64,000 nt of DNA, taken from the IMG/VR virus record IMGVR_UViG_3300045988_138000. One strand, written 5' to 3'. The notes beneath the pieces are model-generated. The model did no database searches. It saw only the letters and a program-made list of their open reading frames with translations, and was not told the DNA's origin. A program made the translations under genes and the position numbers. This document shows, in pieces, positions 5,074-56,731 of this stretch. Source of the stretch: a virus. The stretch's first letter is position 1. Every line of letters starts with the position of its first letter.

Positions 5074-5481
5074 TTATTCCTCCAATTTTACACCGAAAGG
5101 AGTACCATCGGCAAAGGTGTAAATATCAAACAAACGCTCAAACAAAACAGAGCCACAACTAAACATAACCCCATCGTTATGTACATAGTTTATTACTGTT
5201 CGCACATTTCGTTCTTTTTCCTTCACCCACCCAAACGGCTGATGCTTTAGCATTTCCTTCCAACACTCTTCTGCGTTTGCAAATGGGCGATACTTTGGTT
5301 TTTGCTCTGGCTTGATGCGATACTCATGACCTTTCATATACCACAAATCTTTTACCTCAGTCCAATCATCCGAAAAACCAGAACCTTTTATAAAATCTGG
5401 TTTTAGCCTACACTCAATTACCTTTCCTTCAGCAAAAGCCTGCAGGATAGAATAAAATTCTTTTGCTTGATTTCTATCCAT
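5074..5481 (-). CDS. hypothetical protein, paralog of 3633..4019
   Basis: Shares sequence blocks with 3633..4019 and the same KLEE C-terminus. Confidence 0.75.
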   Translation of the reverse strand: MDRNQAKEFYSILQAFAEGKVIECRLKPDFIKGSGFSDDWTEVKDLWYMKGHEYRIKPEQKPKYRPFANAEECWKEMLKHQPFGWVKEKERNVRTVINYVHNDGVMFSCGSVLFERLFDIYTFADGTPFGVKLEE

Positions 5482-8675: not shown

Positions 8676-8713
8676 ATTGTAATATCACGGATATGTTATT
8701 ATTTATTTCGTTG

Positions 8714-8721
8714 CAAATTTA
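8714..8721 (-). promoter_or_regulatory. Bacteroidota-type -7 box (TAAATTTG on the minus strand)
   Basis: Lies inside a ~50-bp block (8709-8760) that recurs at 18859-18909. Confidence 0.5.
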
Positions 8722-8836
8722 AGAAATAAAGTCGTAATCACAAAATATCTCGGGTATTTTGTTGTACTTTTAGGTGATATTTAAGATATTTTTAACAATA
8801 GTCCGTTGATAATTGTTTTGTAAGTGGTTTTAGTAC

Positions 8837-18836: not shown

Positions 18837-18862
18837 TTGAAATCTTTTGATTAAATTTGTTG

Positions 18863-18870
18863 CAAATTTA
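18863..18870 (-). promoter_or_regulatory. Bacteroidota-type -7 box (TAAATTTG on the minus strand)
   Basis: Part of the block 18859-18909, which is shared with 8709-8760. Confidence 0.5.
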
Positions 18871-18896
18871 AGAATTAAAACCGAAACTATAATATA

Positions 18897-18983
18897 TCTC
18901 GGGTATTTTCTTTCTTTAATTTGCAAGATTTAACTTATCCGAGGTATTTTGAGATAAATAACGGCGAATAGCCGAGGTGTAAT
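18897..18983. promoter_or_regulatory. three operator-like repeats in the divergent control region
   Basis: tctcgggtatttt (18897), tatccgaggtatttt (18936) and tagccgaggtgtaat (18969). The first also occurs at 8748-8760. Confidence 0.45.
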
Positions 18984-21512: not shown

Positions 21513-22658
21513 TCATTTATCCGATAAAGAATAATTCCAATTAACTATCTTGCCAAATACTTTGACGGAGCATTTTTTTACGTGCTTAATAACATCGTCG
21601 GTTAGACAACTCTCTACCCTTTCGCATTGCTCCCGACTTGCCTTTAAAAGTATAGTCTTTCCATCGTAGGACATAAACCCAACCTTTCGCAGTTCGTCAC
21701 CAGCCTCTCCATCAAGCATAGATAAGAGCTGCTGCCACTCTCTCTCCCCTGGCTGCTCATCAGCAAAGAGCAACGTCTGTTCCTTGGGCGCTGTCGCCTT
21801 CATCATCTCCTCGAAAGTATCGTAAACATTAAACTCGATAAAAGCAGGATTACCTACCTTGCGCTTACCATTGTAGACAGGTTCATACGACACGCAAACG
21901 TCGAGTTGACCCATCTGCTTCAGTCGGTTTATATCGGCAATGCTATTGTCGAGTACATTCTTCTTGAATTGCGAAAACTTAGGATAGGTCTCTTTCACAA
22001 TTTCCGTACCACTAAATTCAAGCATACCTAAATACTTCTTGATTTTACTGACCGTAAGCCGGATTTTGCGCTCTTTCCAGTTATTGCCGCTTGCATCGCG
22101 CAGAATGTAATATATCATTGGCATACGCGCCACCTCACCAATCAAAGCAATGTTATCAGGATGTGACACATATCCCTCGGTCATATTGAAGGCATAGTCC
22201 AATACATAAAGGTGTTTGTCGGGATCTATCACTTGCGGGTTAAGCCCAAAAACAACTCCCGTGTTCTTAATAGACGTTTCGCCACTCAGAAAAACATTAT
22301 ACATGTGCATACCCCATGTACCATCCTCATTCTTCTTCGGACCTTCCACCTTTACGTCCAACACTTCTTTCATCGCTTGCTTCACGGCAAAGAAATTGTT
22401 TTCTGGTACACCTAACTCAGCATAGGAGATGTATATCTGGGTGACACCCGAATTTTTCACTGCCTCGGAGAACAGGGATTTGGGTACCTTGCGCGACTTA
22501 GCCAAATCTGAACCAAAGAACTCTTTTATGAAGGGCTGCAACTGCTCACTCACCTTCACCAGCACCGCCTGCTGCAACAGCGACAGGTTCTTGCTCAACC
22601 TGGTGAAGGCAAAAGGCGTATTTATCCACTTTTGCGGTAATCGTTTCTCGTTTTCCAT
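21513..22658 (-). CDS. plasmid-type replication initiator (Rep_3/RepB-like)
   Basis: The N-terminus INTPFAFTRLSKNLSLLQQAVLVKVSEQL fits the Rep_3 pattern (N..i.a...LsL.eqR). Iterons lie immediately upstream. Confidence 0.65.
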   Translation of the reverse strand: MENEKRLPQKWINTPFAFTRLSKNLSLLQQAVLVKVSEQLQPFIKEFFGSDLAKSRKVPKSLFSEAVKNSGVTQIYISYAELGVPENNFFAVKQAMKEVLDVKVEGPKKNEDGTWGMHMYNVFLSGETSIKNTGVVFGLNPQVIDPDKHLYVLDYAFNMTEGYVSHPDNIALIGEVARMPMIYYILRDASGNNWKERKIRLTVSKIKKYLGMLEFSGTEIVKETYPKFSQFKKNVLDNSIADINRLKQMGQLDVCVSYEPVYNGKRKVGNPAFIEFNVYDTFEEMMKATAPKEQTLLFADEQPGEREWQQLLSMLDGEAGDELRKVGFMSYDGKTILLKASREQCERVESCLTDDVIKHVKKCSVKVFGKIVNWNYSLSDK

Positions 22659-22677
22659 ATCGTTTCCTTTCCTTTGA

Positions 22678-23042
22678 GGTAAAAAGTTACTAAATCTTTT
22701 TACCTATTTACTATTTCGTTTTACCTATTTACTAACTATTTTTCTTTACCTTGTACTTAAATCACTGAAAATCAGTAATTTCTCATAAACTCCTATAATA
22801 TAGATAAGAAGAAACATATTTTTTCTTTATATATATATTTTAATAGTAAGGTAAAAATATTTAGTATATAGGTAAAAAGATTTAGTAAGATTTTACCTTA
22901 TCGTCACCTTTCGAGTAAAGCAATTTAGTACTTCACATTTAAGGTAAAAAGATTTAGTAAAATTTTACCTTATCGTCACCTTATGGGTAAAGCGATTTTT
23001 CTTTCTTATGTTTGAGGTAAAAAGATTTAGTAAGATTTTACC
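22678..23042. repeat. iteron field plus AT-rich stretch (candidate theta-type origin)
   Basis: ggtaaaaagatttagtaaRattttacc occurs at 22871, 22943 and 23016 (72-73-bp spacing, internal dyad GGTAAAA/TTTTACC), with variants at 22678 and 22850. ttacctatttacta occurs twice (22699, 22720). The AT-rich run 22790-22850 lies within the field. Confidence 0.75.
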
Positions 23043-23399
23043 TTAACCTTGAGAATATCTGTCGATAAACTCTATCACTCCCTGGGCAGCCAGTTCCTGA
23101 AGCGTCTTACCCGTACATTCCTTCAGACGAGCCAAGCGGAAATAATAATCCATGGGGATTGTTACCTTTACACTTTTCTCTGTCTTTAAAGGTTGCATGG
23201 ATAATGACTGTTGCGCTTCGGCTGTTGGCTGTTGGCTGCCAGTGGAAGAGGTGGTGGTAGCACTACCGCTCGCCGTACCCGTTGAAGGCATAAAAAATGC
23301 CGACTGTTGCGAGGTCTGTCCTTGCTCGTATATTCCTTCTATTTTATCCATTGCGTCTGATTTATTCAAACCGAATTTTTTTACATTTGGTCTTGCCAT
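23043..23399 (-). CDS. ribbon-helix-helix ParG/CopG-like partition/regulatory protein
   Basis: The C-terminus VKVTIPMDYYFRLARLKECTGKTLQELAAQGVIEFIDRY has an RHH layout. It lies directly downstream of parA, and the N-terminus looks disordered. Confidence 0.65.
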   Translation of the reverse strand: MARPNVKKFGLNKSDAMDKIEGIYEQGQTSQQSAFFMPSTGTASGSATTTSSTGSQQPTAEAQQSLSMQPLKTEKSVKVTIPMDYYFRLARLKECTGKTLQELAAQGVIEFIDRYSQG

Positions 23400-23456: not shown

Positions 23457-24329
23457 CTACTGAGGCATACTCTCTAAGATTTCTTTCGTAAATCGCTCAT
23501 AGTCCTGCCCTACCCTGCAGTAAGGTGCATAAGAAAAAATGTCGGTACCCATCGCCTGAGCTTCCACCATCTTGGTATCTCTGCGGGTATATGAATCGAA
23601 CACGTAGTCATCGAACTTCTCGCTCAGATATTCCTTGAACTGACGCGTCGCCTTGGTCTGGTCATTACTCATCACCTCCAACAGTCCACGAATATCCAGG
23701 TCCTCATTCAGGTCTTCCCTGGTCTCTATCACGGCATTGGTGATTTCTGCAATACCCTTTGTGGCCAACACTTCCAACTGGACGGGGATAACGACACTCG
23801 ATGCCGCCGCCAGCGCATTATAGGTAAGCAGCGACATGGCTGGAGGGCAGTCTATCAATACGTAGTCGAAGGCATCCAGGATGCTGCTTACGCCCTCGTC
23901 TGCGAGTTCTGTGCCCTGCATCTCCTGTAATGGCTTCAATAGGATTTTACGAAGGGCCTTGCGAGGCACCGCCATCTGGTTAAGAAAGGGCTCGATGCTG
24001 ACCATCTTCTGTGAGGCCGGAGCGAGGTAGATACCTTCCTGCATCTTATATACGGGCAGGGAGGTCTGGTTGATAAGAGCATCGTAGGTGGTAGGCTTAT
24101 TGTCGCTGTTCACCTGGTCCCAACCGAAAAGGAAAGACAGACTGACCTGTGGGTCGAGGTCTACGAGTAAGATACGTGGCTTTCGCTCCTTTCCGTCTGC
24201 ACCCTTTCCGAAGTACCCTTTACCGAAGCGACGCAGCCCTGTTGCTAAACTCTGTACCGTTGTGGTCTTGCCTACTCCACCTTTATGATTCACGAAGGCG
24301 AGTATTTCTTTCAATCTTGTTTCTGCCAT
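23457..24329 (-). CDS. parA: ParA/Soj-family partition ATPase
   Basis: Deviant Walker A FVNHKGGVGKTTT. 290 aa. Confidence 0.85.
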   Translation of the reverse strand: MAETRLKEILAFVNHKGGVGKTTTVQSLATGLRRFGKGYFGKGADGKERKPRILLVDLDPQVSLSFLFGWDQVNSDNKPTTYDALINQTSLPVYKMQEGIYLAPASQKMVSIEPFLNQMAVPRKALRKILLKPLQEMQGTELADEGVSSILDAFDYVLIDCPPAMSLLTYNALAAASSVVIPVQLEVLATKGIAEITNAVIETREDLNEDLDIRGLLEVMSNDQTKATRQFKEYLSEKFDDYVFDSYTRRDTKMVEAQAMGTDIFSYAPYCRVGQDYERFTKEILESMPQ

Positions 24330-24349: not shown

Positions 24350-24930
24350 AATCTATTCGATAATGCTATAATGTGTAACCAAATACACCGAAGTACATAA
24401 GTACATTAGTACTAAAGTACGAACCTACGTATCTACGTACCTACATACGTACCTATGATTTTTCATACGTGCAAAGATACAACTAAAAAACATAACTACC
24501 AACTATTTTCCGTTTTATATTTTAAATATTAAGTATTTTTATAGGTTCGCATCTATGAACGAATGAAAATATGAACGTAGATACCTATCAGCATACGAAC
24601 CCACGTACCTACGTGCGAATAAACGTATGAACCTACGTACCTACGTGCATACGAAAGTGCATAAGTACGTAGGTGCAAAGATACGAAAGTACGAATGCGT
24701 GGAAGTTTGGACGTATCGAAGTGGAAAGGAGTGGACGTTGAAAGGTGCAATCGTATAAAGTACTAAAGTACTAAAGTGCAATAATATTAAAGTATAATGG
24801 TGTATTTGCATAAAAGTACAAAAGTACAATAGTTTTAAAGTGTAATTGTGTAAACGTATAAAAGTACTAAAGTACTAAAATACAATAACACAAAAGTACA
24901 ATGGTGCAAAAGTATAAAAGCGCAATGGTC
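24350..24930. repeat. centromere-like field of short repeats upstream of parA
   Basis: 8-bp periodic TAAAGTAC/AAAAGTAC runs (24758-24790, 24810-24830, 24858-24885), CTACGTAC runs (24423-24455) and a duplicated gaaccYacgtacctacgtgc (24597, 24629). No credible ORF. Confidence 0.6.
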
Positions 24931-34896: not shown

Positions 34897-34948
34897 AATT
34901 GTAATATTTTTATTTGTCTATAATAGGGGCAAATGCCCCCGTGATACC

Positions 34949-35632
34949 TTATTTCCGATTTTCCGCTAATATTTTTCTCACGCTATAATAAGGCGTATTA
35001 AACGGATATTTCACTTCGTTGATGACGTACACCACCATCGGCTCATTCATGCGCAATGTATCTCGACACTCCACACGGCCATACATGCCATGTGCCATGA
35101 GATTCAGGGCGCACATCTTGCAAGCAATAGGATCGCTGTCCTGTGCCACATACTCGAAGCGGCGGCCAGCCGAATGGTCCAGTTTGCTCTTATCCATGTA
35201 GTGAGCCAGGAGCAAACGTCCGCTACCTGCTGCGCAGTCGTTCACCTTGCCATGATTCCCCGCTCCCAAGGCACTAATCCGTGCCATAAGGTCCGAAATA
35301 CTCTGAGGCGTGAAGAACTGCCCCGTTTTCGATGCCTTGCCACGGCTCAAATACATTTCTTCATACAGGATACCGAACACGTCCAGCCACTCGCCACGAT
35401 TCATCGCTGTTGCCACATCGCCCAGCCACTGGAGGGCGAGAGCGGAAAACTCAGGATTCTGCTCTGTGCAACTCAAAATGTGCTGGCTATATTCAACGGT
35501 GCCAGCCTTGAAAGCGTCAATGCTGAAGAACTCTATAAGATAGTCGCAAAAGTCGCTCAGAGCCAGTTCCTGCGGTCTGCTATGCTTGTTAGCCTGTTCG
35601 GTCAATACGTCGATATACTTCTTTTTATCCAT
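34949..35632 (-). CDS. HsdM-like N6-adenine methylase fragment (SAM-binding half; no NPPF/NPPY motif seen)
   Basis: Motif X TGQFFTPQSISDLMA and motif I VNDCAAGSGRLLL are present. The protein ends ~35 aa after VECRDTL without a (N/D)PP(F/Y) motif. Confidence 0.7.
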   Translation of the reverse strand: MDKKKYIDVLTEQANKHSRPQELALSDFCDYLIEFFSIDAFKAGTVEYSQHILSCTEQNPEFSALALQWLGDVATAMNRGEWLDVFGILYEEMYLSRGKASKTGQFFTPQSISDLMARISALGAGNHGKVNDCAAGSGRLLLAHYMDKSKLDHSAGRRFEYVAQDSDPIACKMCALNLMAHGMYGRVECRDTLRMNEPMVVYVINEVKYPFNTPYYSVRKILAENRK

Positions 35633-35650
35633 GATTTTCTCAAAATTTTA

Positions 35651-35706
35651 TGTGTTCTATAATAGGGCTGCCCTACTGCCAGGTGCAGCCCCGTGAATGA
35701 TGATTT
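35651..35706. repeat. intergenic cassette, copy 1 (CTATAATA + hairpin)
   Basis: ttctataatagggctgccctactgccaggtgcagccccgtgaatgatgatt. Stem gggctgc/gcagccc at 35665-35691. Confidence 0.8.
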
Positions 35707-36511
35707 AATAACCCTTCCAAAAGTAAGAGTGATGGCTATACTGGCTTAATGCCTTCTCCTTGGCAAACTCGCGGATCTCGTAGTCGTAGCCTTCCATCTC
35801 CTTCATAATCGCCTCCGCTTTTCGTGCCAGGCGCAGATAGGCTGCATACTTCTTCTTGGATGCCTTCAGATTATCAATAACCGCCAAACGCTCTTTTTTA
35901 TACTGTTCTATAACAGCAACCGCCTTTTCGGCCTCCAGACGGTCGCCAGTGTTCCACTGCCATTCGTTCGGATTCACTTCTTTCTTCTTACCGGTGTAAC
36001 GGTTGATGCCGTGGCTCCAGTCTGCGGATATTGAAACGTTTGGGCGATATTCCACAATACGGTAATAATCCCAGCAATTCAGCTCGAAGCGGTTTTCACC
36101 AAACGAACTATAAAAGCCCGTCGCCTCCTTCACGGCATCGTGGAAGCGTTTATTCAGGACCTTTTCATCAAACTTTCGGCATACCTGAATAAGTCCGTCC
36201 AGGGCCTTGATTTCAAGTTTTCTGCGCTCTATCAATGCGTCCGCGTGCTTGCAATACTCCTTCACCTCGTTGACCTTTTTGTCGGCTTCATGTTTTTTTG
36301 CAGCCGCCATAAAGTCCGCCTCCGTACCGATACTGTAGGACTTCTCTTTCCATCCATTCTCGCGACTAAACTGGTGATATAAATCTATATACCTCTGCGC
36401 ATCATCCTTTGTGGCAAAGTGGCACACGCCGTCCAATGTTTCAGACTTCCACAACCACACATCGCCATCGTTGCAAATAAGATTTTTTGCTTCAACAAAT
36501 ATCTGGAACAT
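35705..36511 (-). CDS. hypothetical protein
   Basis: 268-aa ORF. Confidence 0.75.
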   Translation of the reverse strand: MFQIFVEAKNLICNDGDVWLWKSETLDGVCHFATKDDAQRYIDLYHQFSRENGWKEKSYSIGTEADFMAAAKKHEADKKVNEVKEYCKHADALIERRKLEIKALDGLIQVCRKFDEKVLNKRFHDAVKEATGFYSSFGENRFELNCWDYYRIVEYRPNVSISADWSHGINRYTGKKKEVNPNEWQWNTGDRLEAEKAVAVIEQYKKERLAVIDNLKASKKKYAAYLRLARKAEAIMKEMEGYDYEIREFAKEKALSQYSHHSYFWKGY

Positions 36512-36530
36512 AATATTCTCAATTTTTTAT

Positions 36531-36585
36531 GTATTCTATAATAGGGCTGCCCTGCTGCCAGGTGCAGCCCGTGAATGATGATTAG
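36531..36585. repeat. intergenic cassette, copy 2 (CTATAATA + hairpin)
   Basis: ttctataatagggctgccctgctgccaggtgcagcccgtgaatgatgatt. Near-identical to 35651-35706. Confidence 0.8.
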
Positions 36586-36974
36586 TAAGACAAAACGGCT
36601 ATACGGTAATACTCCGTTTCTCCATCCTCCGGAATGTTGGCAATACACAGATCGCCTGTAGGTGCCTCGTAAATATACGAGCTGCCTATAATATCATGCA
36701 CCGTAAACTCGCCTCGCTGCTGGCTGTGTTCGCCGCTGTTGGCTATACATGTGATGCCGTTGTGATAGCCTCCAGCCGGTGCAGGAAAATCCCCGGCTAC
36801 CATCCTGTCCTGAAGGAAGCGAGACGAGCGGCGGCCCGCCTCCTTGCTGTGCTGTCTGAGTACCTGAGCCATGAGGCGCTTTGCCTCGGTCCATCGTGCC
36901 TCGTTAAACATATCCCGACGCTGTGGGAAATACTTCTGGTCGTTGCTAACGTTATATAATACTATCTGTGCCAT
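36582..36974 (-). CDS. hypothetical protein
   Basis: 130-aa ORF. Confidence 0.65.
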   Translation of the reverse strand: MAQIVLYNVSNDQKYFPQRRDMFNEARWTEAKRLMAQVLRQHSKEAGRRSSRFLQDRMVAGDFPAPAGGYHNGITCIANSGEHSQQRGEFTVHDIIGSSYIYEAPTGDLCIANIPEDGETEYYRIAVLSY

Positions 36975-37029
36975 AATCTTAAAATATTAAAAGTCTGTGA
37001 TATTTTTATCTGCCTATAATAAGGCGTTA

Positions 37030-37287
37030 TTAATACTCGATGCAGAGCAATATTGCCACTACAGCTGCAATGATGTTGTAGCCGACAAACTGCCAGCCGG
37101 TGCACTTTATGGGGTCGCCATCCTGGCCATAAAAGCTGTGCTTGGTTTGGAGCCACTGGCAGACAGTTTTCAGGGCCGCCAGGGCATTCTTAGCCATGCG
37201 AGTGGCGAGTAACACGATAACGGCAAATAAGGCCGTCAGAAGGGCACGTGTGCCCGTTGTGCGTGATATTGTGATATTCTGTGCCAT
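37030..37287 (-). CDS. small membrane protein (two TM helices)
   Basis: ALLTALFAVIVLLA and FVGYNIIAAVVAILLCI. Confidence 0.6.
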   Translation of the reverse strand: MAQNITISRTTGTRALLTALFAVIVLLATRMAKNALAALKTVCQWLQTKHSFYGQDGDPIKCTGWQFVGYNIIAAVVAILLCIEY

Positions 37288-37299
37288 GATGATATTGTT

Positions 37300-37974
37300 T
37301 TATGCGATTTTCTTCTTCTGTTCTTCCACTTCCTGCCAAAGGCGCTTGTCCGTTCTGCCATAGCCGGCCTCGCCATTGGAGCATAGATAGGCGCGATACA
37401 TTTCCTCGTCGCAATACATTGAGAAAGCCAGCTCAGCCTCGTTTTTCAGCTCGTCTATAATAGCCTCGATCTTGCGAATAATGTGCGCGGCGTGAATCTT
37501 ACTGAGCCCCTTATTGTCGTACCAGTTGTCGCGGATCACGTCGTCGGCCTCCAGCTCGTCGTGCTCATACTCAAACGTCTCTATATAGCCGTCTATCATG
37601 CCGATAACCTTCACTTTCGCGAACCAGTCAAAATTAGCTGCCTCGTAATAGCCGGACGTGCAACCGGCCTGTATAGTAATATCTATTGACGTACTGCCAA
37701 ACCAGAAAGTTTTAGTCTTTTCTGAAAATAGAGTTGTAGGGTAATAGCGATCCCCGTCGCATTCCTCTATATCGTTCCAGCCCTTTGCCTTCAACTCACA
37801 AGCCACATTCTCTTTGTCGGCTTCATAATAAGCCTCCGTGTCCAGTTCATCATACTCGCCTAAAAGGTCCTGGTCGAGTTCGCGCTCGTCAATTTCCTCC
37901 TGTGTGTAAAAAACAGGCATACCGAAAACGAAATAACGTGAGGCGTTTTTTAATGCAAAATTAGGTGTACTCAT
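37300..37974 (-). CDS. acidic hypothetical protein
   Basis: 224-aa Asp/Glu-rich ORF. Confidence 0.7.
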   Translation of the reverse strand: MSTPNFALKNASRYFVFGMPVFYTQEEIDERELDQDLLGEYDELDTEAYYEADKENVACELKAKGWNDIEECDGDRYYPTTLFSEKTKTFWFGSTSIDITIQAGCTSGYYEAANFDWFAKVKVIGMIDGYIETFEYEHDELEADDVIRDNWYDNKGLSKIHAAHIIRKIEAIIDELKNEAELAFSMYCDEEMYRAYLCSNGEAGYGRTDKRLWQEVEEQKKKIA

Positions 37975-38048
37975 AATCTAAAGTATTTTTTATGTTAGTG
38001 ATTTTATATGTAGTCTATAATAGGGAGGCCGGAGTCTCCCTGGTATGG

Positions 38049-38324
38049 TTAGGCGCAGCGCATGAAATCGTCCAGATAATAACGCGTTCCGTATATGGTA
38101 AAATACGGACGGCATTCAGCTTCAGGATCACGCGGGCAAGTGTATTTGATGCGCTGCCATCGTTGTGCCGTGTGCTCGTTTCTGCTGGTGCAGTCGCGCC
38201 ACAATACCCCTTCTCCTCCATCGTCTATAACGATGCAATAACCGCCATAATTGTTAGTCTGAAGAAAAGCGCAGCCGAACTTTAAAAGCTCGTCGAACTC
38301 CTGTTTTTTAGTGATACGTGCCAT
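38049..38324 (-). CDS. hypothetical protein
   Basis: 91-aa ORF. A TAATTTTG -7 box (38390-38397, minus strand) lies upstream. Confidence 0.6.
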   Translation of the reverse strand: MARITKKQEFDELLKFGCAFLQTNNYGGYCIVIDDGGEGVLWRDCTSRNEHTAQRWQRIKYTCPRDPEAECRPYFTIYGTRYYLDDFMRCA

Positions 38325-38628
38325 AATCTATAAGCCGAATTGCTGTTGCCGCCAGATCTAAATTGTTATTTGTTTCTTATTTTCGTTTGCAAAATTACTA
38401 TATACATTTGAAATAGCCAAATATTTAAATTAAAAAGTTATCAAATACATTTATTTTTAACGTTTATACACAATTATATGTATTTGTAATAGGTATTATT
38501 TACATTTGTTTACAATTCCCTGATCTCTGTGATATGCTATAAAGTCTATAACGAGCTGCCAGGAGTGGGGGCACCGCTGCAAAATCTCTAAAATCTGTGA
38601 TATACTATAATATGTATAACGTAACAAA

Positions 38629-39064
38629 GTGGGCACCATTGAGGCGCACCAGGAACGGCGCAACGGTGCAACGGGCAACACTCCACACCTGGCAGCATCG
38701 AGGCACCAGGACGGCGCAAAATGGTGCAACGGACAACACTCCACGCCTGGCAGCATCGAGGCACACCAGGAAGGCGCAAATGGCACGGCGGCAATACTCC
38801 ACACCTGGCAGCATTGAGGCGCCAGGAACGGCGCAAAAGGGCACGGCGGCAATACGTCCACACCTGGCAGCATCGAGGCGCACCAGGAACGGCGCAAAGG
38901 GTGCACGGGTAACACTCCACACCTGGCAGCATTGAGGCGCACCAGGAAGGCGCAAATGGCACGGCGGCAATACTCCACACCTGGCAGCATTGAGGCGCAC
39001 CAGGAAGGCGCAAATGGCACGGCGGCAATACTCCACACCTGGCAGCATTGAGGCGCACCAGGAA
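38629..39064. repeat. GC-rich tandem array 1: about 7.4 copies of a 58/59-bp unit, non-coding
   Basis: The anchor CCTGGCAGCAT recurs at 38688, 38746, 38804, 38863, 38922, 38980 and 39038. The last two units are identical. Confidence 0.9.
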
Positions 39065-39065
39065 C

Positions 39066-39099
39066 GAAAAAAAACGGGCTGCAAACAATTTGCAGCCCG
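39066..39099 (-). terminator. rho-independent terminator after 39107..39457
   Basis: cgggctgcaa-acaat-ttgcagcccg (10-bp stem) followed by a T8 run on the minus strand. Confidence 0.75.
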
Positions 39100-39106
39100 C
39101 GAACGG

Positions 39107-39457
39107 TTAAAACATCCGATATAATTCATTATACATATTATATGTATTATCTTGATTCAAGAACTCAAGGAAGGCCGCGGCGCGTTTTTTAGTTAAAACT
39201 TTGTAGTTATGCAAAGTTAAAAACGCTTTCTTTGCGGCCGCCTTAATCTTCTCGAGTACGTCAATAATAACGTTTTTTATTGCGCTTTGGTACAGGTAAC
39301 TTTCCCACGTTCTGTTATAATAACGTATCTTTGTGCGGGCAACTTTGAACGTGTTATTTTTATATAATGTAACTTCGTGTCCCCAACTGGTGCGAGTTCT
39401 CCAGGACTCGCACACAAATGTAAATTTTACGCCGTTTATTTCTTTGTTATAAATCAT
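39107..39457 (-). CDS. hypothetical protein
   Basis: 116-aa ORF. Confidence 0.65.
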   Translation of the reverse strand: MIYNKEINGVKFTFVCESWRTRTSWGHEVTLYKNNTFKVARTKIRYYNRTWESYLYQSAIKNVIIDVLEKIKAAAKKAFLTLHNYKVLTKKRAAAFLEFLNQDNTYNMYNELYRMF

Positions 39458-39492
39458 AATATTAAGTATTTTTGTTATTGTTAGATATTTAT

Positions 39493-39825
39493 TTATTTTT
39501 CGCAGAAGGTACGAGCCCAGAAGCTGCAGACCTCGAAAGACGAGCGGCGACCATTGCAGAAAGCGGGAAAAAGACGCTCAACCACTGCCAAGGCATTTGT
39601 TTCGATATTCATTGCCACCTCAAACGCAGGACCAAGCAAGAAAAAGAAGGAGAGAACGACACGCGCGGCGATACCGGTAATACAAAATACACTAATTAAT
39701 GAAACAAGGAGATAGACACAACCTAACAGAGCGGAAACAGTTAGGACGATCACAACGAGGAGAGAGAGAAGGAAGGCGGCACGCTTGGCGGCCTTTACTG
39801 AATTATTTACAAAATTTGTCTTCAT
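39493..39825 (-). CDS. membrane protein
   Basis: 110 aa with several hydrophobic helices (AAFLLSLLVVIVLTVSALLGCVYLLVSLISVFCI..). Confidence 0.6.
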   Translation of the reverse strand: MKTNFVNNSVKAAKRAAFLLSLLVVIVLTVSALLGCVYLLVSLISVFCITGIAARVVLSFFFLLGPAFEVAMNIETNALAVVERLFPAFCNGRRSSFEVCSFWARTFCEK

Positions 39826-39857
39826 AATCTATATATTTTTTTAAGTTGTTAGATGAA

Positions 39858-39876
39858 GGACCGGCGGCGCCGGTCC
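39858..39876. repeat. GC hairpin ggaccggc-ggc-gccggtcc (copy 1; part of a ~45-bp intergenic repeat)
   Basis: The same 8-bp stem recurs at 40298-40316 with the complementary loop. Confidence 0.7.
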
Positions 39877-39886
39877 CTGGTTATTT

Positions 39887-40264
39887 CTATTTTTGCAAAC
39901 TTGCTATAAAAGCATCTACAGAATCGAAATCATTTTTATTTGAATGATCGTGCAAAAAATTCACTCTAAACTTTTCATAACTCGTTATACAATCTTTTCT
40001 AACTTTGCCGTTTAAAAAGACACGTTCACCACACGCACCACCACGGGGCGAAACGTTCATAGAGCCACACGCAACCTTTAAACGATACAAAACGTTTATA
40101 ACGTCGAATGTTTCAACGTGTTTTGTGTTTTTGTCGCTGTATCCCGTTGTAGCTATACCAAAAACAGCAAGACGACAAATTGCTTTATAAACGCGTGAAT
40201 TTTTACGGATTCCATAATTAAATGGATTCTTTATAAAGCTATGTAATTTATCTATTTGTCTCAT
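39887..40264 (-). CDS. hypothetical protein
   Basis: 125-aa ORF. Confidence 0.6.
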   Translation of the reverse strand: MRQIDKLHSFIKNPFNYGIRKNSRVYKAICRLAVFGIATTGYSDKNTKHVETFDVINVLYRLKVACGSMNVSPRGGACGERVFLNGKVRKDCITSYEKFRVNFLHDHSNKNDFDSVDAFIASLQK

Positions 40265-40297
40265 AATTATAATTATTAAAAAATTGTTTGATGTAAG

Positions 40298-40316
40298 GAC
40301 CGGCGCCGCCGGTCCT
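40298..40316. repeat. GC hairpin ggaccggc-gcc-gccggtcc (copy 2)
   Basis: See 39858-39876. Confidence 0.7.
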
Positions 40317-40325
40317 GGTTCTTGT

Positions 40326-40700
40326 TTAAAGTTTTATTTCTTTCATGTTCGCCAGATCAAAAATAGCTATCTGGTTGTTATAACGTCCAAGATCTTTTGC
40401 GGTTTGCAAATCGTCTACGATTACGGTTGCGTCAAAATAAAATTGATTATTGTCTCCATTATACCAGCCGCCAAAGGCGTTTATTTCTGGATGCTCAGAA
40501 ACGTATTTTACGACGTTTGCCAGACCATCCAGGCCAAAAGAGTCTTGCGTATCTGCAACGGCTACAGCGTAACCGCTTGTCACCGGCTGCAAGTTGGCAG
40601 CGTCCACGGTAAAGCCTTCTTTGTTAGCCATTGCGATCGCTGCAAGTGCGATCAATACTTTAGTTTGTTGTTTATTCATTGTTTTAATGCGGAATTTCAT
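40326..40700 (-). CDS. hypothetical protein, possibly secreted
   Basis: 124-aa ORF (alternative start MNKQQTK at 40679) with the N-terminal hydrophobic stretch VLIALAAIAMA. A TACTTTTG -7 box lies at 40747-40754 on the minus strand. Confidence 0.6.
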   Translation of the reverse strand: MKFRIKTMNKQQTKVLIALAAIAMANKEGFTVDAANLQPVTSGYAVAVADTQDSFGLDGLANVVKYVSEHPEINAFGGWYNGDNNQFYFDATVIVDDLQTAKDLGRYNNQIAIFDLANMKEIKL

Positions 40701-40896
40701 ACTGTTGCCCCCAGCTTTATATTATTTGTTTCTTGTTTTACAGTTGCAAAAGTACTACATATAATTGTAATAGCCAAATTTTTCGATTAAAAAGTTATCA
40801 AATGTATTTATTTTTAACCTCCTTAAACAAATATATATGATTTGTTTACACTTATTTGCAAATAGATATAATTGCATACCTTATTATATATAGGGT

Positions 40897-41350
40897 CGTT
40901 GCGGTTCTGGTGGCTGGTGGCTCCCTGGTGGCCGCCTCCCTGGTTCCAGTGGTGGAGGTGCCTCCCTGGTGGCTGGTGCCTCCCTGGTGGCTGCCTTCCT
41001 GGTGGTGCTGGTGGCCGCCTCCCTGGTTCCAGTGGTGGAGGTGCCTCCCTTGGTGGCTGGTGGCTCCCTGGTGGCCGCCTTCCTGGTGGTGTTGGTGGTG
41101 CCTCCCTGGTTCCAGTGGTGGAGGTGCCTCCCTGGTGGCTGCCTTCCTGGTGGTGCTGGTGGTGCCTCCCTGGTTCCAGTGGTGGAGGTGCCTCCCTTGG
41201 TGGCTGGTGTCCTCGTGGCTGGTGGCTGCCTTCCTGGTGGTGTTGGTGGTGCCTCCCTGGTTCCAGTGGTGGAGGTGCCTCCCTTGGTGGCTGGTGTCCT
41301 CGTGGCTGGTGGCTGCCTTCCTGGTGGTGCTGGTGGTGCCTCCCTGGTTC
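40897..41350. repeat. GC-rich tandem array 2: composite 64-87-bp units, non-coding, CCTGG-dense
   Basis: The anchor TGGTTCCAGTGGTGGAGGTGCCTCCC recurs at 40941, 41024, 41107, 41171 and 41258, with a truncated copy at 41345 (spacing 83, 83, 64, 87, 87). Confidence 0.9.
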
Positions 41351-41724
41351 CTCGCCCGCATATTCACAGCCGGACACGCGGGCGGGGGCACGCAAGGCTC
41401 CTCAGTGCGGCGGCGCTCTCGCTTGTGAATCGAAGTTGCAAGGAAAGTTTGCTGGATGCGATTGCTCTAATTATCAATTATTTAGGTTTTCCTTTCGGGA
41501 TGGCTTTTACAGGTTGGCTTTTCTGTTAAGCCTTTGATTATTAACTATTTATAGGGGCGAAAGAATAATTCAGATACAACAAAACAGATTATATACCTCT
41601 CTTTTTTTACAAAAAAATACAAAAGAAAACGCTGCAAACAGATAAAACTATACTCTTTTGAACAGAAATAAACGTATATAATAATTATTTTTCAGAAAAA
41701 CTTGCAAAATACAAATATATGTAT

Positions 41725-41757: not shown

Positions 41758-42051
41758 ATGAGAACGAAAATTGACATTCGTCGCGCCATAAAAGAGCGCG
41801 GTTACACCATTACGTCTTTCTGTCAGAAGTTCGACCTAAAGACGCAGAACATCATTCAGAATTACATCAAAGGAAACCCTACAATAAAACGTTTGGAGGA
41901 CCTTTGCGAGAAACTGGATTGCGACATCACTGATTTGTTCTATCCAATAGGCGATTCGAGCGATGCACAGCCTACTATCAACACCACCGCCTTCTGTCCT
42001 CATTGTGGTGCAAAGGTTCGTGTCGGTGTGATGCTCCTGCCCGAAGAATAA
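41758..42051 (+). CDS. HTH (XRE-like) regulator with C-terminal CxxC element
   Basis: IKERGYTITSFCQKFDLKTQNIIQNYIKGNPTIKRLEDLCEKLDCDITDLF, followed by FCPHCGAKV. Confidence 0.7.
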   Translation: MRTKIDIRRAIKERGYTITSFCQKFDLKTQNIIQNYIKGNPTIKRLEDLCEKLDCDITDLFYPIGDSSDAQPTINTTAFCPHCGAKVRVGVMLLPEE

Positions 42052-52428: not shown

Positions 52429-52677
52429 CTAAGACATTTTTTTCTCTACGATAGCTGTCACATCAGACACAAGTTGTAAGTCTTTTGCCTCTTCGGGCGA
52501 AATCTTGATATGGAACATGGTTTCGGTCTGAAGAACGAGATCGAGAAAGTCGATAGACTCAAGAGCGAGATCATCACGCAGGTTAGAGCTGTCGGTCACT
52601 TCTGCTGTCGATGCCCAAGGTGTGCGCAGGCCTTCAACTATATTGAACACCCGCTGGCGAATATCTTCTTTGTTCAT
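52429..52677 (-). CDS. acyl carrier protein
   Basis: 82 aa. RDDLALESIDFLDLVLQTE aligns with the ACP D-S-L phosphopantetheine-attachment helix. ATGA overlap with the KAS gene. Confidence 0.8.
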   Translation of the reverse strand: MNKEDIRQRVFNIVEGLRTPWASTAEVTDSSNLRDDLALESIDFLDLVLQTETMFHIKISPEEAKDLQLVSDVTAIVEKKMS

Positions 52678-53888
52678 AATGATTGGAATTTAGAAATGAT
52701 GAATGACGAGTTGGTGCCTCCGAAGCCAAAGGCATTACAAAGAATATGGTGTGATAAGTACTCGCGTGACTGCATGACGAGATTGAGCTTAGGAAAAGCA
52801 TTCTCGGCTGTGGTAGCCGCACCGAAGATAGTGTCTGTGTTGAGCATCATGGCGGCTTGAACGGCCTGCGATACACCAGCCATCCAGCACTCGTGACCCG
52901 TCATACCCTTGGTGGCTACGATATAAGGGCTCTCGGGGAACACCTTTCCGATGGCTTCTGCCTCTGCAGCATCGCCCTGCTCCGTACCTGTGGCATGGGC
53001 GAGGAGTACATCTATCATTCCGGCATCGAGTCCAGCCGACTCTATGGCCTTAATCATTGCCACCTCTTCCTGATAAGCATCCGGGGTACAGATGCTGGTG
53101 CCATTAGTGGAAAAGCCGTAGCCTGAAAGTTCTGCCACGGGCGAGACTTCATAATCCTCAAAACGCAAGCTGTCGGAAGGCTCAAGAATGACACAGGCTG
53201 CACCACCCGAAGGAGCAAGACCATTGCGGGCTTTGCCGAAAGGCTGCACCTTGTCGGGCGAGAAAACGCCCATGGCATCAAACGACAGCATGGAGAAGGG
53301 ACCAGTCTCCTGTGCTCCAACGACAATCACCATGTCGGTTTGGCGCGCATCAAGAAGCATCTTGGCAAGACCGATGGCATGACCTCCTCCGGCACAAGCC
53401 CCGCTGACGGTAAGCGAGAGTCCTTTCAGTCCGTAGATAGAGGCGAGGCTCATGCTGACGGTGGAATTGAGTGTGCGGAACACTGCACCTGCCCCTAAAC
53501 GTCGGGTGTCGCGCTGTGTAATGGCAGTGGTCATTGCCTGATAGTTGTCTCCCGCCGTAGAGTCGTTGCTGACGATGACCGATACATTGTGAGACTGCAA
53601 GAACTCGGGAAGAATATTGGCTTCCACCAGAGCCTCGTTGACGGCAGATAAGGAATATAGGGTCGGTTCGGAAAGACATTGCCGTTGACCCCTGGTGAGT
53701 TTTGAAAACTTCCAAGGGTTCGGATCATTTATCTTTCCGCACAGGTCGGACTGATAACCTTTCTCGCTGCGCGCGGGGTCGTGGTGCAGACCGCACTCTC
53801 CATACGCCAGCTTCTGTGCGACGGAAAAGGTATCGTTGCCAAGACTGGAAACAATACCTGTGCCTGTGATTAATATTTTTCTATCCAT
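52674..53888 (-). CDS. beta-ketoacyl-ACP synthase (KAS I/II, Cys-His-His type)
   Basis: Start moved to MDRKILITGTGIV (ATG at 53888). Active-site Cys in VSGACAGGGHAIG, His residues in HATGTEQGD and GMTGHECW, and a C-terminal NAFGFGGTNSS. Confidence 0.85.
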   Translation of the reverse strand: MDRKILITGTGIVSSLGNDTFSVAQKLAYGECGLHHDPARSEKGYQSDLCGKINDPNPWKFSKLTRGQRQCLSEPTLYSLSAVNEALVEANILPEFLQSHNVSVIVSNDSTAGDNYQAMTTAITQRDTRRLGAGAVFRTLNSTVSMSLASIYGLKGLSLTVSGACAGGGHAIGLAKMLLDARQTDMVIVVGAQETGPFSMLSFDAMGVFSPDKVQPFGKARNGLAPSGGAACVILEPSDSLRFEDYEVSPVAELSGYGFSTNGTSICTPDAYQEEVAMIKAIESAGLDAGMIDVLLAHATGTEQGDAAEAEAIGKVFPESPYIVATKGMTGHECWMAGVSQAVQAAMMLNTDTIFGAATTAENAFPKLNLVMQSREYLSHHILCNAFGFGGTNSSFIISKFQSL

Positions 53889-53917
53889 GATTATGTTTGT
53901 TTGATTAAAGAATACTC

Positions 53918-56731
53918 TTACAAGGCATAGACGGTCAGTTCTACCTCTCCAATGCCTTCCTTGGCCGTGATAGTTGTATTCACCTTGTCGATAAGACATT
54001 TCACACCTCCGATGTTCCACCACGTCTTCCAGTGGTTAGGTATGTCGGCTATCTGTGCGACAGAAGCCGAACAGCGGATGATGTACTTCTTGCGGTTAAG
54101 CAGGAAATAGGCGTAGGGCAGAATGAAGGTATCGAAAAGACCGCGTGAGCGTATCTTGGTTATCACATTGCCGTTAGTGTCCACCTCGTCGGGGGCGCAG
54201 AGTGAAACATCCTTATATTCAGGCTTACTGAGCCATGACGGCTCTTTGAAAGCACGTATCTTGAGCGAGAAACGTTCACCTTTGCCTCTGCCTTCCTGAA
54301 TACCATTATAGTCGAAGACATTGCCCATCATGTCAATAGAGTCGCAAGCAAGAGCATATTCGCCTGCTGCCGTGCGCCACTTGGAAGTACCGAAGTGGTC
54401 GTAGTTATAGTCATAGGGCTCTGTAGTTGCATTCGTACCGCCGCCTCGCATCATGGCCAAGGCAAAGCCCCATCGTGAATCGTCTTGAAGAGGCGAGTTG
54501 CCGTCTTCGGTGTTTGACGGGTCGTAGCTCTCGACGAGTTTCAACGACTGCTGCATATAGAAGTCGCAGAAAGGCGAGGAGATGGTCTGGTTGATGATTT
54601 GCTCGACAAACTCATGCTCCATGTCCTCATCGACATAGGCGCAGAGGATAGGCTGTCCTTCCTTGATAACGACACCATAGGTTGTTGTCTTTGAATCGTC
54701 ATAGTACTTTGCCGTATGAGAGCCGTAAGCAGCCTCTATCTCCTTGAAATAGTTGACATCATTGAACGGCACGGGGGTGAAGTCGATGGTGATGTCGTGG
54801 ATGAAGTCTTCATTCTCCTCGCTGCAATCGCCATACTCCACACCCTTGTACTGGCCTACCTCGAAAAGCACAGGCTTGAGGTCGGCTGTAGTAGTGGCGT
54901 CGCCATTCACCTTCACGCGATAGGCATTGCCCGTCTTCGGGTCGATGTAGCATCTTTTATCGCCAGAACTTAAATTATGAAAGAAGTCAACGTAATCTCG
55001 ATCGTAAACCGTTTCGTTGTCTCCACTTCCCGGTTCGGGATAGTCGATATAGTCGTAGTCGGTAGCATAGCCCATATTTTTATTCTTGCGGCTGTCCTTG
55101 ACGTTCTGCTGCTGATCCTTGGCATCGCTCTCTTCGGAGTATCGCATACGTACACCCGTTATCTTCTCGCTGACGGGAATGATAGAATGAACGTCTGCGC
55201 GAAACGTGCGTGCTGGCTGTCCACTCTCGCGAAGCACGTCACGGATGAGGTAGGCCGTGACTTTCTTTTGCTCATAGTCGTAGGAAAACTTGATGCCGAA
55301 GGCGCTCTCCAAGGATGAGATAATCGTGCTGACACTCTCATCGGGGAAGTTGTCGCTGTTGGCCACCATATAGAGCACGTTGGCCTGCACGTTGAACTTA
55401 GAGATTTGCGCCTCGATGCTGATACCTGTCACCTTTCCGCCCTCTTTTGTCGTCTCTCCCACCTGTATGTGTTCGGAAGTTCCTTCGTTAGTGGTAAGGG
55501 TGAGCTCGTTGACCGTCTTGTCCTCTGCCTTTACGATGTTGATTTTTCCACCACAACCGCGCGACTCCAACCAGGAGTTGATATGATCTTGCTTCTTGAA
55601 ATATCCTTCCTTAATCTCGCCTGCCTTCTTTTTCTTGGCGATGACTTCGGGGTCTTTATCCTCATAGTATGTTCCGTGATGTGGATGCTCTTTGGTGTCG
55701 TAGGCGCAAACGGTGGTGAAGAAACAGAGGTGCTTCATATCCTCTATCTGCATCAGTGCCGACTTGTCGAAGGTGACACCCAGGTGAGCAAACAGGCAGT
55801 CGAGAAAATAGAGTACATAGAAACAGATGCCCGACTGCGGACGGCGTGCGTCCAACACCCAATAGGGATAAAGATCCTCGTTGGTCCACTTGCAGTCCTT
55901 CGTGCTGATAACGTCGCTCGATGTGGTGCCATCGTCAGCAAGTCCGTGGTGCTTGTAGCAGATACGGGCGTTGCAATAAGCTGCCGGACGGCCTGCGCCA
56001 TCTGTCTCGCCATAGGCTGCCGACGTGTTGATATAGTCGCCATTCTTGGCGATGGCGGGCTCGTTGACTGTATTTCCGTTGGGGTAGGCTCGTGACGACT
56101 TTCTCTTAGCGTCGGCCTTCATGTGTAAAGGATAAAGGATATTGGTGGTGTACTCCTGGCACGATGCAGGATAGGAGAAGCCAAGAGCCTGCGGTTCGAG
56201 CACTTTACTTACACTTACGTGCTCGGCATGAATGGTTCGGGTGACAGTCTCATCATCCTTATGCTTTCCTCCCTCCACAAACACACTGACATTTACAACA
56301 GGGTCGCTCTCGATGTCTACCCTTACGTTGCCTATCTTCTCGCCGATGATCAGTTCATCCTTGATGGGGATGTCACGACAGTTGAGCGAACCGATGAGGT
56401 CGCTGAAACTCTGTCTGCCTGCATTAATACTCATAGAGAGCGAGTCTTTTATCTCTTCAGCATCCTGCATGACGAGCGTACCGTTGCGGAAGGGCAGTCC
56501 GTCGGCATGAATGCGCGTAGGCAAATGCTCCATATTGACAGCACGAAACGATGCCCGCACGTCATCGATGTTCTTTACCAGCCATCGGTTGCCGTCGAGC
56601 GGAATGGAAAACGGATAGGCGAACATCTCGTTATCATTGAACACAGGGTTCTGGTCCTCTATATCGATAGAGAAATCATCGGGCAGCGACACAGGTCGGT
56701 CGTTGATAAGTATGGTGAGATGTGAGTTCAT
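53918..56731 (-). CDS. large virion (baseplate/tail-like) protein
   Basis: 937-aa ORF, translationally coupled (ATGA) to 56728..57396. The function is inferred from size and context only. Confidence 0.7.
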   Translation of the reverse strand: MNSHLTILINDRPVSLPDDFSIDIEDQNPVFNDNEMFAYPFSIPLDGNRWLVKNIDDVRASFRAVNMEHLPTRIHADGLPFRNGTLVMQDAEEIKDSLSMSINAGRQSFSDLIGSLNCRDIPIKDELIIGEKIGNVRVDIESDPVVNVSVFVEGGKHKDDETVTRTIHAEHVSVSKVLEPQALGFSYPASCQEYTTNILYPLHMKADAKRKSSRAYPNGNTVNEPAIAKNGDYINTSAAYGETDGAGRPAAYCNARICYKHHGLADDGTTSSDVISTKDCKWTNEDLYPYWVLDARRPQSGICFYVLYFLDCLFAHLGVTFDKSALMQIEDMKHLCFFTTVCAYDTKEHPHHGTYYEDKDPEVIAKKKKAGEIKEGYFKKQDHINSWLESRGCGGKINIVKAEDKTVNELTLTTNEGTSEHIQVGETTKEGGKVTGISIEAQISKFNVQANVLYMVANSDNFPDESVSTIISSLESAFGIKFSYDYEQKKVTAYLIRDVLRESGQPARTFRADVHSIIPVSEKITGVRMRYSEESDAKDQQQNVKDSRKNKNMGYATDYDYIDYPEPGSGDNETVYDRDYVDFFHNLSSGDKRCYIDPKTGNAYRVKVNGDATTTADLKPVLFEVGQYKGVEYGDCSEENEDFIHDITIDFTPVPFNDVNYFKEIEAAYGSHTAKYYDDSKTTTYGVVIKEGQPILCAYVDEDMEHEFVEQIINQTISSPFCDFYMQQSLKLVESYDPSNTEDGNSPLQDDSRWGFALAMMRGGGTNATTEPYDYNYDHFGTSKWRTAAGEYALACDSIDMMGNVFDYNGIQEGRGKGERFSLKIRAFKEPSWLSKPEYKDVSLCAPDEVDTNGNVITKIRSRGLFDTFILPYAYFLLNRKKYIIRCSASVAQIADIPNHWKTWWNIGGVKCLIDKVNTTITAKEGIGEVELTVYAL

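Follow-up and report, generated by a model that had tools for sequence, protein, structure and literature searches.

Paired early promoter modules with hypervariable, base-depleted tandem arrays in a family of gut phage-plasmids

Introduction

In phage lambda, early operons are served by two similar promoter regions, OL/PL and OR/PR. We compare this arrangement with a locus in a viral genome of IMG/VR (record IMGVR_UViG_3300045988_138000), of which a stretch of 64,000 nucleotides (nt), called here the window, was analysed. The locus contains two promoter modules, P1 and P2, and a GC-rich tandem array upstream of each of them (array 1 at site 1, array 2 at site 2). As in lambda, the two promoter regions resemble each other, stand ~2.3 kb apart, serve early operons and lie beside a Cro/CI-type gene; as in promoter-operators of the lambda type, the similarity of the copies is kept within each genome. 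Contrary to lambda, the copies are direct and not divergent, the promoters are of the Bacteroidota type (TTTG / TAnnTTTG), and the boxes recognised in them are those of promoters, not of operators.

The arrays can be compared with four described kinds of repeat or composition-defined element. Like minisatellites, or variable-number tandem repeats (VNTRs), they consist of head-to-tail units of 10-140 nt, vary between near-identical genomes, are homogenised within each array and break assemblies. Unlike these, they are fixed at two syntenic promoter-upstream positions throughout the family, fill their gap exactly and are extremely depleted of a single base. Plasmid iterons and centromeres (P1 incA/incC, R1 parC, pB171 parC1/parC2, the pSM19035 heptads) are likewise direct-repeat arrays beside promoters of a plasmid-like replicon; many site-1 arrays of the relatives are phased by 10 nt, and the two arrays bracket an operon. 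The arrays described here differ in being GC-rich and hypervariable, in having no co-varying protein, and in lying ~15 kb away from a Rep3-like/iteron module and a ParA/8-mer module.

Rho-dependent terminators, with their Rho-utilisation (rut) sites as in lambda tR1, function by composition and not by sequence, which would permit free sequence turnover. Array 2 read leftward is similarly long, C-rich, G-poor, almost U-free and untranslatable. However, known rut sites are not tandem repeats, array 1 of the window has no excess of C over G, and the likeness is one of composition alone. With arrays of clustered regularly interspaced short palindromic repeats (CRISPR), the locus shares only an AT-rich flank beside a repeat array and the tandem periodicity; it has no spacers, no conserved repeat and no cas domains in the ten genes scanned (34.9-42.1 kb).

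Duplicated promoter regions and VNTRs are known kinds of element. What is new is their fixed pairing across an abundant and undescribed family of gut phage-plasmids, and also the extreme conservation of the arrays in composition only. Searches of the literature on Bacteroidales phage-plasmids and on the Bacteroides Chi sequence turned up no account of such arrays.

Results

Two paralogous promoter modules

An earlier note on this DNA, made from the sequence alone, reported a shared flank of ~95 bp beside the two arrays. The similarity is confirmed: the segments 38367-38461 and 40723-40818 agree at 82 of 96 positions in a global alignment (85.4% identity). It also stays above background, as shuffled sequences reach 55.5 +/- 2.5% (maximum 62.5%) and 58 other -7-box regions of the window have a mean of 54.8% and a maximum of 69.5%. 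A degenerate flank pattern of 49 nt matches solely these two places, with 0 matches expected. The resemblance reaches ~175 nt when followed outward (38340-38515 against 40696-40851; 71%, one indel), from the 5' untranslated region (UTR; ctgttgcc.ccag) across the promoter to TGTAAACAAAT. The sequence tttgtttaca, noticed earlier at both loci, is present at 38505-38514 and 40841-40850.

We took as a Bacteroidota sigma-A promoter a -33 TTTG and a -7 TAnnTTTG ~19-21 nt apart, upstream of a gene on the same strand. Judged by their boxes, both flanks are predicted canonical promoters of this type on the minus strand (-33 TTTG, 20 nt, -7 TAnnTTTGCA). In P1, the TTTG at 38418-38421 is followed, after a 20-nt spacer, by the -7 box TAATTTTG (38390-38397 on the + strand) and then CA. 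In P2, the TTTG at 40775-40778 precedes, by a spacer of the same length, the -7 box TACTTTTG (40747-40754), again followed by CA. Each flank thus holds the -7 box of the adjacent minus-strand gene, as had been claimed. The boxes lie 65 nt (P1) and 46 nt (P2) upstream of the ATG, and the arrangement is alike in relatives. Bacteroidota-type promoters precede gene starts in the window. On direct sequence evidence, the two flanks appear to be copies of one early promoter module for the host RNA polymerase. Duplication of a promoter is in itself ordinary.

Relatives were collected from IMG/VR and human-gut metagenomes: 22 loci were fetched via the 124-amino-acid (124-aa) protein encoded next to P2, 13 via block 2, a conserved segment next to array 2, 2 via the flank pattern and 40 via the 91-aa protein encoded next to P1. 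Some of these loci are duplicate assemblies or separate pieces of one genome. The layout and order of elements are identical in ~60 related loci, which come from fewer distinct phages, and both flank copies are found in almost every genome spanning the region.

In 22 loci, including some duplicate assemblies, P1 and P2 of the same genome have a mean identity of 76.7%. Orthologous flanks compared between genomes reach 71.2% (P1) and 68.8% (P2), and cross-genome P1-P2 pairs 66.1%. That the two flanks of one genome are more alike than cross-genome P1-P2 pairs points to gene conversion between the promoter modules. In L002 and L003, flank 1 carries flank 2-like sequence; in L009, L015 and L019, the P1 and P2 copies are nearly identical. 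The flanks are true paralogues under concerted evolution. This paralogy provides two clean candidate early promoters for genetic tools in Bacteroidota phages.

Two further promoter-like features were seen. A second paralogous pair is located at 8690-8763 and 18839-18912 (78% over 74 nt, both with GTTGCAAATTTAAGAA); its similarity to flank 2 is 61%. Inside flank 1, the + strand carries at 38501-38508 a perfect TACATTTG box, seemingly conserved among relatives when inspected by eye. It could be a divergent promoter running rightward through block 1, the spacer next to array 1, and through the array itself.

Arrays fixed in place and free in sequence

The 58-nt units of array 1 and the nested units of array 2 (Table 1) are contiguous and agree at 85-98% of matched positions within an array. 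Their distance from tttgtttaca, given earlier as 80-170 bp, is actually 118 nt for array 1 and 57 nt for array 2.

Among near-identical relatives, units measure between 10 and 140 nt, and whole arrays between 0 and 520 nt. In a comparison with relatives that match the window at ~90-97% identity in aligned DNA, the size of array 1 drops from 435 nt here to ~366 nt in L001 and to ~1.3 units in L002. Array 2 consists in L001 of a distinct 69-nt unit without CCWGG and is almost gone in L002. Site-1 units are of two kinds. The first is a GC-rich unit of 57-60 nt with TGGAGTATTRC and TTTGCGCC in common; the second is based on 10 nt, for example GTGGCTATCT, GCTGTATCTC, TGGCGCTCTA or TGCTTGGATG/CTCTTGTACG. 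Site-2 units measure 12-140 nt and are built around the core CCACCGAGGACACC. Arrays were detected at 33 of the 39 listed loci for site 1 and 21 of the 35 for site 2, some of them duplicate assemblies of one genome. Being made of contiguous head-to-tail units that vary among close relatives, the arrays are minisatellites, or VNTRs; they are non-coding.

What is conserved in the arrays is position, tandem character, GC-richness and the depletion of a single base; the sequence is not. The shared architecture proposed earlier is borne out, an array standing upstream of the promoter module at both sites in relatives. The arrays occupy the whole space between fixed elements and are the least conserved sequence of the region. 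They mark the borders of the most variable early cassette, beside the Cro/CI-type gene.

On the + strand, array 1 contains 9% T and array 2 contains 2% A. The minus strand of array 2 has more C than G and holds 0 start codons and 0 stop codons. In array 1, A or T amounts to 9-13%, start codons occur on both strands along with a few stops, and C is about equal to G in both senses. The site-2 arrays, read in gene sense, have at most 7% T, a (C-G)/(C+G) of +0.16 to +0.51 in 16 of 16 cases (+0.16 in the window), 0-5 start codons and 0-3 stop codons. The 10-nt families of site 1 show the same features of composition in the antisense direction, but the 58-mers of the window do not. In most relatives, gene sense is A-poor at site 1 and T-poor at site 2, with a few reversals.

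RNA folding was compared with shuffles. Array 2 gives z = +0.2 leftward and z = -3.0 in + sense, the latter in line with a G/U-rich repeat. For array 1, the two strands have z = -1.2 and 0.1.

The arrays systematically interrupt the assemblies of this phage family, and are the main reason why its genomes come out broken from short reads. Contigs of 98-105 kb start or stop in them. In an IMG/VR contig of 100,781 nt both ends lie inside array 2, which indicates a circular genome broken at the repeat. Array 1 or its immediate neighbourhood is where around half of the metagenome contigs end; of 22 IMG/VR contigs, ~ten end within or beside one of the two arrays. Short-read assemblies may also collapse arrays. 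The element is carried by dozens of human-gut metagenome contigs, one of them with a coverage of up to ~1,285x, and many related variants co-occur within one metagenome.

Relationship between the two arrays

The arrays had been described as quite different in sequence. This is true of the same strand, where their alignment score is 7, but the reverse complement of array 1 aligns with array 2 at a score of 59. The latter score was reached in 2 of 500 tiled-shuffle trials and, with a stricter unit-against-unit null, in 54 of 1000. A 13-mer, CGCCTTCCTGGTG, is common to the arrays in inverted orientation. By this comparison, the resemblance is weak, at the level of motifs, and inverted. Measured against the flanks, which are direct repeats, the arrays of this window have opposite polarities; they are thus not a direct duplication with later divergence.

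In one relative (L073, 4210-4450), T-poor units of the array-2 type stand at site 1 behind a single remnant 58-mer, in the same orientation at both sites. The two array sites thus do exchange sequence ectopically.

The earlier note had proposed that gene, promoter, leader and array were duplicated as one unit. The promoter module is paralogous, and the arrays occasionally are, but a simple duplication of the whole unit does not fit. The genes driven by P1 (38324-38049) and P2 (40700-40326) are unrelated (BLASTP E = 0.23), which means that the duplication included no gene. The flank is the promoter of a gene pointing away from the array, and at most a putative leader of the array.

Known repeat elements and motifs considered

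The loose resemblance to a leader-array locus does not extend to CRISPR, for which we required conserved repeats of 23-47 nt, unique spacers of similar length, and cas genes or a conserved repeat family. The units here are contiguous, 10-140 nt long and variable between close relatives, with neither spacers nor spacer periodicity and no repeat family conserved among relatives. Searches of the ten neighbouring genes against Pfam and PHROGs returned as domains only a Cro/CI-type helix-turn-helix (HTH) and an N6-methyltransferase, and no Cas. A CRISPR array was rejected.

No recognisable structured RNA was found either: there is no Rfam match at the gathering score, and matches at E <= 5 are at chance level. 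RNAalifold covariation is about zero for both strands of block 2 and for the 58-nt unit.

An iteron origin is at odds with arrays that are GC-rich, have no adjacent rep gene and vary while their neighbours are conserved; the Rep3-like gene has iterons of its own. No par gene flanks the arrays, and many site-1 arrays are phased by 10 nt, which would suit a centromere. With Rep/iteron and ParA/repeat modules ~15 kb away, at 22.7-24.9 kb, the arrays are probably neither origin nor centromere.

Chi of the E. coli type has exact copies in array 2, yet these are not conserved in relatives and show no genome-wide skew; the enzyme of the host is probably AddAB. The earlier emphasis on CCWGG holds for the window, with 15 sites in array 1 and 16 in array 2, but not as a general feature. 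Most relatives' arrays lack the motif, and the 95 sites outside the arrays compare with ~100 expected for the whole window; CCWGG density was rejected as the key feature. Finally, the 9-mer ACCTGGCAG is indeed present six times on the + strand of array 1 and, on the - strand, in the two hairpin loops (35676-35684, 36555-36563), but the link drawn between them is not significant. The hairpins (35.7 and 36.6 kb) are paralogous to one another, and a single extra occurrence is expected ~0.45 times by chance.

Possible roles of the arrays

We tentatively favour a reading in which the arrays are cis-acting, sequence-nonspecific buffers that would shield the two early promoters and the cassette from incoming transcription. 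The anatomy, promoters, paralogy, concerted evolution, hypervariability, non-coding nature and composition are shown above; the picture as a whole, which includes them, is put forward with the same reserve. P2 would fire the variable cassette of small, partly hydrophobic proteins, and P1 the next early operon, which starts with the highly conserved 91-aa protein. Ectopic gene conversion would keep P1 and P2 alike. Upstream of each module, a minisatellite fills the space up to the next fixed element, namely the cassette terminator for array 1 and block 2 for array 2. Its turnover is quick, by slippage or unequal exchange, with occasional copying between sites.

TAnnTTTG boxes can hardly arise in the most extreme arrays, with A missing from one strand and T from the other, and array 2, read leftward, is devoid of start and stop codons. 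The leftward RNA through array 2, almost U-free, with more C than G and no more structured than shuffles, would have the composition of a Rho-loading zone. If a rut site is taken as at least ~80 nt of C-rich, G-poor, poorly structured and untranslated RNA, array 2 read leftward fits by composition and array 1 does not. From these features we infer that the arrays may be selected at all, and that their role may be one of buffering or termination.

Several observations weigh against such buffers. Late transcription running leftward is already halted ahead of array 2, by a strong intrinsic terminator (42086-42056). Given the balance of C and G in array 1 in both senses, a Rho-type role suits array 2 and the 10-nt families better than the 58-mers, and the start codons on both strands of array 1, with its few stops, weaken the promoter-box and translation argument there. 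One or both arrays are missing in L003, L013, L017 and L044; any role would then be dispensable, or else assemblers may have collapsed the arrays. Polarity is reversed at site 2 in the L016 type and at site 1 in L049, L062 and L073. Composition may also be conserved through common descent of the units and not through selection, related arrays not being independent samples.

The main rival, a real possibility if not a likely one, is that the arrays are neutral minisatellites: slippage-prone filler in two permissive gaps, with a bias taken from ancestral units and a balance between expansion and contraction. This agrees with the free shifts of unit sequence, length and copy number among close relatives, some of which have no array, with the occasional reversal of polarity, and with the fact that structure or a coding signal was not found in the arrays. 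It is harder to reconcile with phage genomes being compact and deletion-biased, yet having arrays at 33/39 site-1 and 21/35 site-2 loci. The gap is always filled exactly, up to the terminator T-run, and several distinct-looking unit families keep one extreme base asymmetry. If neutral, the arrays would still be useful as strain-typing VNTRs and as a warning for virome assembly and for repeat and CRISPR callers.

We consider it doubtful that the arrays constitute an undescribed cis element set by composition and polarity, be it a U-free, C-rich factor-loading zone or insulator, or diversifying arrays akin to incompatibility determinants or centromeres. Were this true, the arrays would bracket an immunity-proximal early cassette and set early transcription or the coexistence of related elements, and their hypervariability would be an adaptive read-out rather than noise. 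A cis role would also mean a function encoded by base composition and tandem structure alone.

A binding platform for a phage or host DNA-binding protein is unlikely. It could serve as another centromere or determinant of incompatibility, as an iteron-like control locus, or as an architectural element that acts on both promoters from upstream; the rapid divergence would then reflect diversifying selection between relatives resident together. Arrays at promoters are known from centromeres and operators such as R1 parC, pB171 parC1/parC2 and the pSM19035 heptads. The arrays here stand 130-215 nt upstream of two co-evolving promoters, many of those at site 1 are strictly phased by 10 nt (periods of 10, 20, 30, 40, 50 and 60), and many related variants are found together in one metagenome. 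However, no neighbouring protein co-varies with array type among the 116-aa, 91-aa and HTH proteins: conservation of the 91-aa protein stands at 95%, the HTH types do not follow the array types, and L018 is without the 116-aa gene, yet its array is long. Units differ even between genomes with ~90-97% identical flanking DNA, and Rep/iteron and ParA/repeat modules exist elsewhere in the window.

Transcribed repeat RNAs, the reading nearest to the leader-array idea, are improbable. Rightward promoters would drive a G/U-rich RNA from array 2 and an A/C/G-rich RNA from array 1, which would serve for regulation, as sponges or as a long leader to the HTH gene. Candidates for such promoters are the TACATTTG box of flank 1, a TTTACA-16-TATAAT at 40845-40872 and the oriented CCTTATTATAT that abuts array 2, whose + sense also folds better than shuffles. 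Array 1 does not share this folding, and neither an Rfam match nor a conserved unit structure or covariation was found. Unit sequences are not conserved, no terminator lies downstream in + sense, and the two RNAs would be opposite in composition.

Very improbable are polar elements of DNA metabolism facing outward from the cassette, either as Chi-like or anti-exonuclease clusters or as G-rich R-loop or priming zones by a lytic origin. In the window, and likewise in most relatives, array 2 has its G/T-rich strand on the + side and array 1 on the - side. Array 2 contains 7 exact copies of GCTGGTGG and 5 of GSTGGAGG on the + strand, and GGTGG-type cores recur in site-2 arrays. But array 1 and the arrays of many relatives have no copy of the octamer, the motifs are neither enriched nor skewed elsewhere in the window, polarity is reversed in some relatives, and a Rep/iteron origin is already present. 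Bacteroides fragilis uses AddAB, whose Chi sequence there is unknown (PMC2887965).

That the arrays encode low-complexity repeat proteins through their stop-free frames is effectively refuted. Long open reading frames (ORFs) do span both arrays in five or six frames, and all relatives have an ATG ahead of array 2 in minus sense, formed by the complement of the conserved CAT (41359-41361). But with A missing from one strand and T from the other, all six frames are open trivially. Internal start codons are absent from the T-poor strand, unit lengths are mostly not multiples of 3 (10, 20, 22, 23, 50, 58, 62 and 64 nt), and one DNA core is read in different frames in different relatives (PPRTP vs HHHRG).

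Genes and conserved elements around the arrays

Read leftward on the minus strand, the region begins with the divergent HTH gene and an AT-rich region containing its promoter, followed by block 2, array 2, the CCTTATTATAT motif and flank 2/P2. Next come the genes for the 124-aa, 125-aa, 110-aa and 116-aa proteins and their intrinsic terminator, and then array 1, block 1, flank 1/P1, the 91-aa gene and further early genes (Table 1).

Table 1 Features of the array locus and of the plasmid-type modules in the window
Feature	Coordinates	Strand	Remarks
Rep3-like initiator gene	21513-22658		Rep3_C winged-helix match
AT-rich iterons	22687-23071		21-nt and 72-nt periods; adjoin the Rep3-like gene
ParA-type ATPase gene	23457-24329		
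Dense 8-nt phased repeats	24414-24925		CTACGTAC, AAAGTACn; >20 copies; beside the ParA gene
91-aa gene	38049-38324	-	driven by P1; no family assignment
Flank 1, promoter module P1	38340-38515	-	with 5' UTR of gene 38324-38049 and ~100 nt of AT-rich upstream region
Block 1	38516-38631	-	conserved spacer between array 1 and flank 1; two TTATAG..ATATCACAGA modules
Array 1	38632-39066		~7.4 copies of a 58-nt GC-rich unit; fills the gap from terminator T-run to block 1
Intrinsic terminator of the 124aa-116aa operon	39066-39100	-	12-bp stem and T8; array 1 abuts the T-run
Variable early cassette	39107-40700	-	driven by P2; 124-aa, 125-aa, 110-aa and 116-aa proteins
Flank 2, promoter module P2	40696-40851	-	with 5' UTR of gene 40700-40326 and AT-rich upstream region
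CCTTATTATAT motif	40879-40889	+	directly abuts array 2; conserved in all relatives
Array 2	40907-41351		nested 64/83/87-nt units
Block 2	41352-41565		~215 nt, conserved, non-coding; between array 2 and the HTH promoter
Cro/CI-type HTH regulator gene	41758-42051	+	divergent from the early cassette

Across relatives, the 91-aa protein keeps 95% identity, against 70-85% for the neighbouring proteins, and it has several conserved cysteines. On these grounds it appears to be a strongly constrained early protein; it has no match in GTDB genomes. The gene content of the cassette varies among relatives, and its proteins have no family or solved relative in a PDB sequence search, Pfam, PHROGs or NCBIfam. 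The 124-aa protein has a hydrophobic N-terminal stretch that looks by eye like a signal peptide, and the hydrophobic 110-aa protein is, going by its sequence only, probably a membrane protein. Two of the cassette genes are followed by near-identical palindromic hairpins (GGACCGGCGGCGCCGGTCC; 39858-39876 and 40296-40316), which recur in relatives. They may be attenuators or RNA-stability elements within the P2 operon.

Block 1 is conserved in all relatives irrespective of array type. Block 2 contains a near-invariant 30-mer, GATGCGATTGCTCTAATTATCAATTATTTA, found also in the relatives L025-L037; no convincing RNA structure or covariation was seen on either of its strands. Block 2 may serve the HTH gene and the early switch as an operator or a regulatory region.

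The CCTTATTATAT motif is an inverted copy of CCYTATTATAG, a motif preceding minus-strand genes at 34.9-38.0 kb. Six copies of the latter (minus sense, 34918-38025), each placed after a GC-rich hairpin, stand 25-45 nt upstream of the ATG in six successive minus-strand genes; 10 matches were counted where 1.6 would be expected. CCYTATTATAG could be a phage-specific promoter, a terminator tail or a processing signal.

The phage-plasmid and other features of the window

The window belongs to a phage-plasmid of ~100 kb, with a host of the Bacteroidota type, that is present in human-gut and other metagenomes. Its phage-plasmid nature is indicated by the Rep3-like/iteron and ParA/repeat modules together with the Cro/CI-type HTH gene. 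The Rep3-like/iteron module (21513-23071) is probably the plasmid-mode origin, and the 8-nt repeats beside ParA are likely the centromere. Among 50,697 GenBank phage records, no DNA match to the region was found, and protein matches are only remote. A scan of the window gave no tRNA and no Rfam family at the gathering score.

Genes of the window include those for a DNA polymerase III beta clamp, an NAD-dependent ligase, tail-fibre-like proteins and a YopX protein. A beta-ketoacyl synthase (KAS) gene, an unusual phage cargo, lies at 52674-54023 amid tail and structural genes. In the left part of the window, a 95-nt direct repeat (3783-3877 and 5212-5306; 78% identity), seemingly within two minus-strand ORFs, points to paralogous genes.

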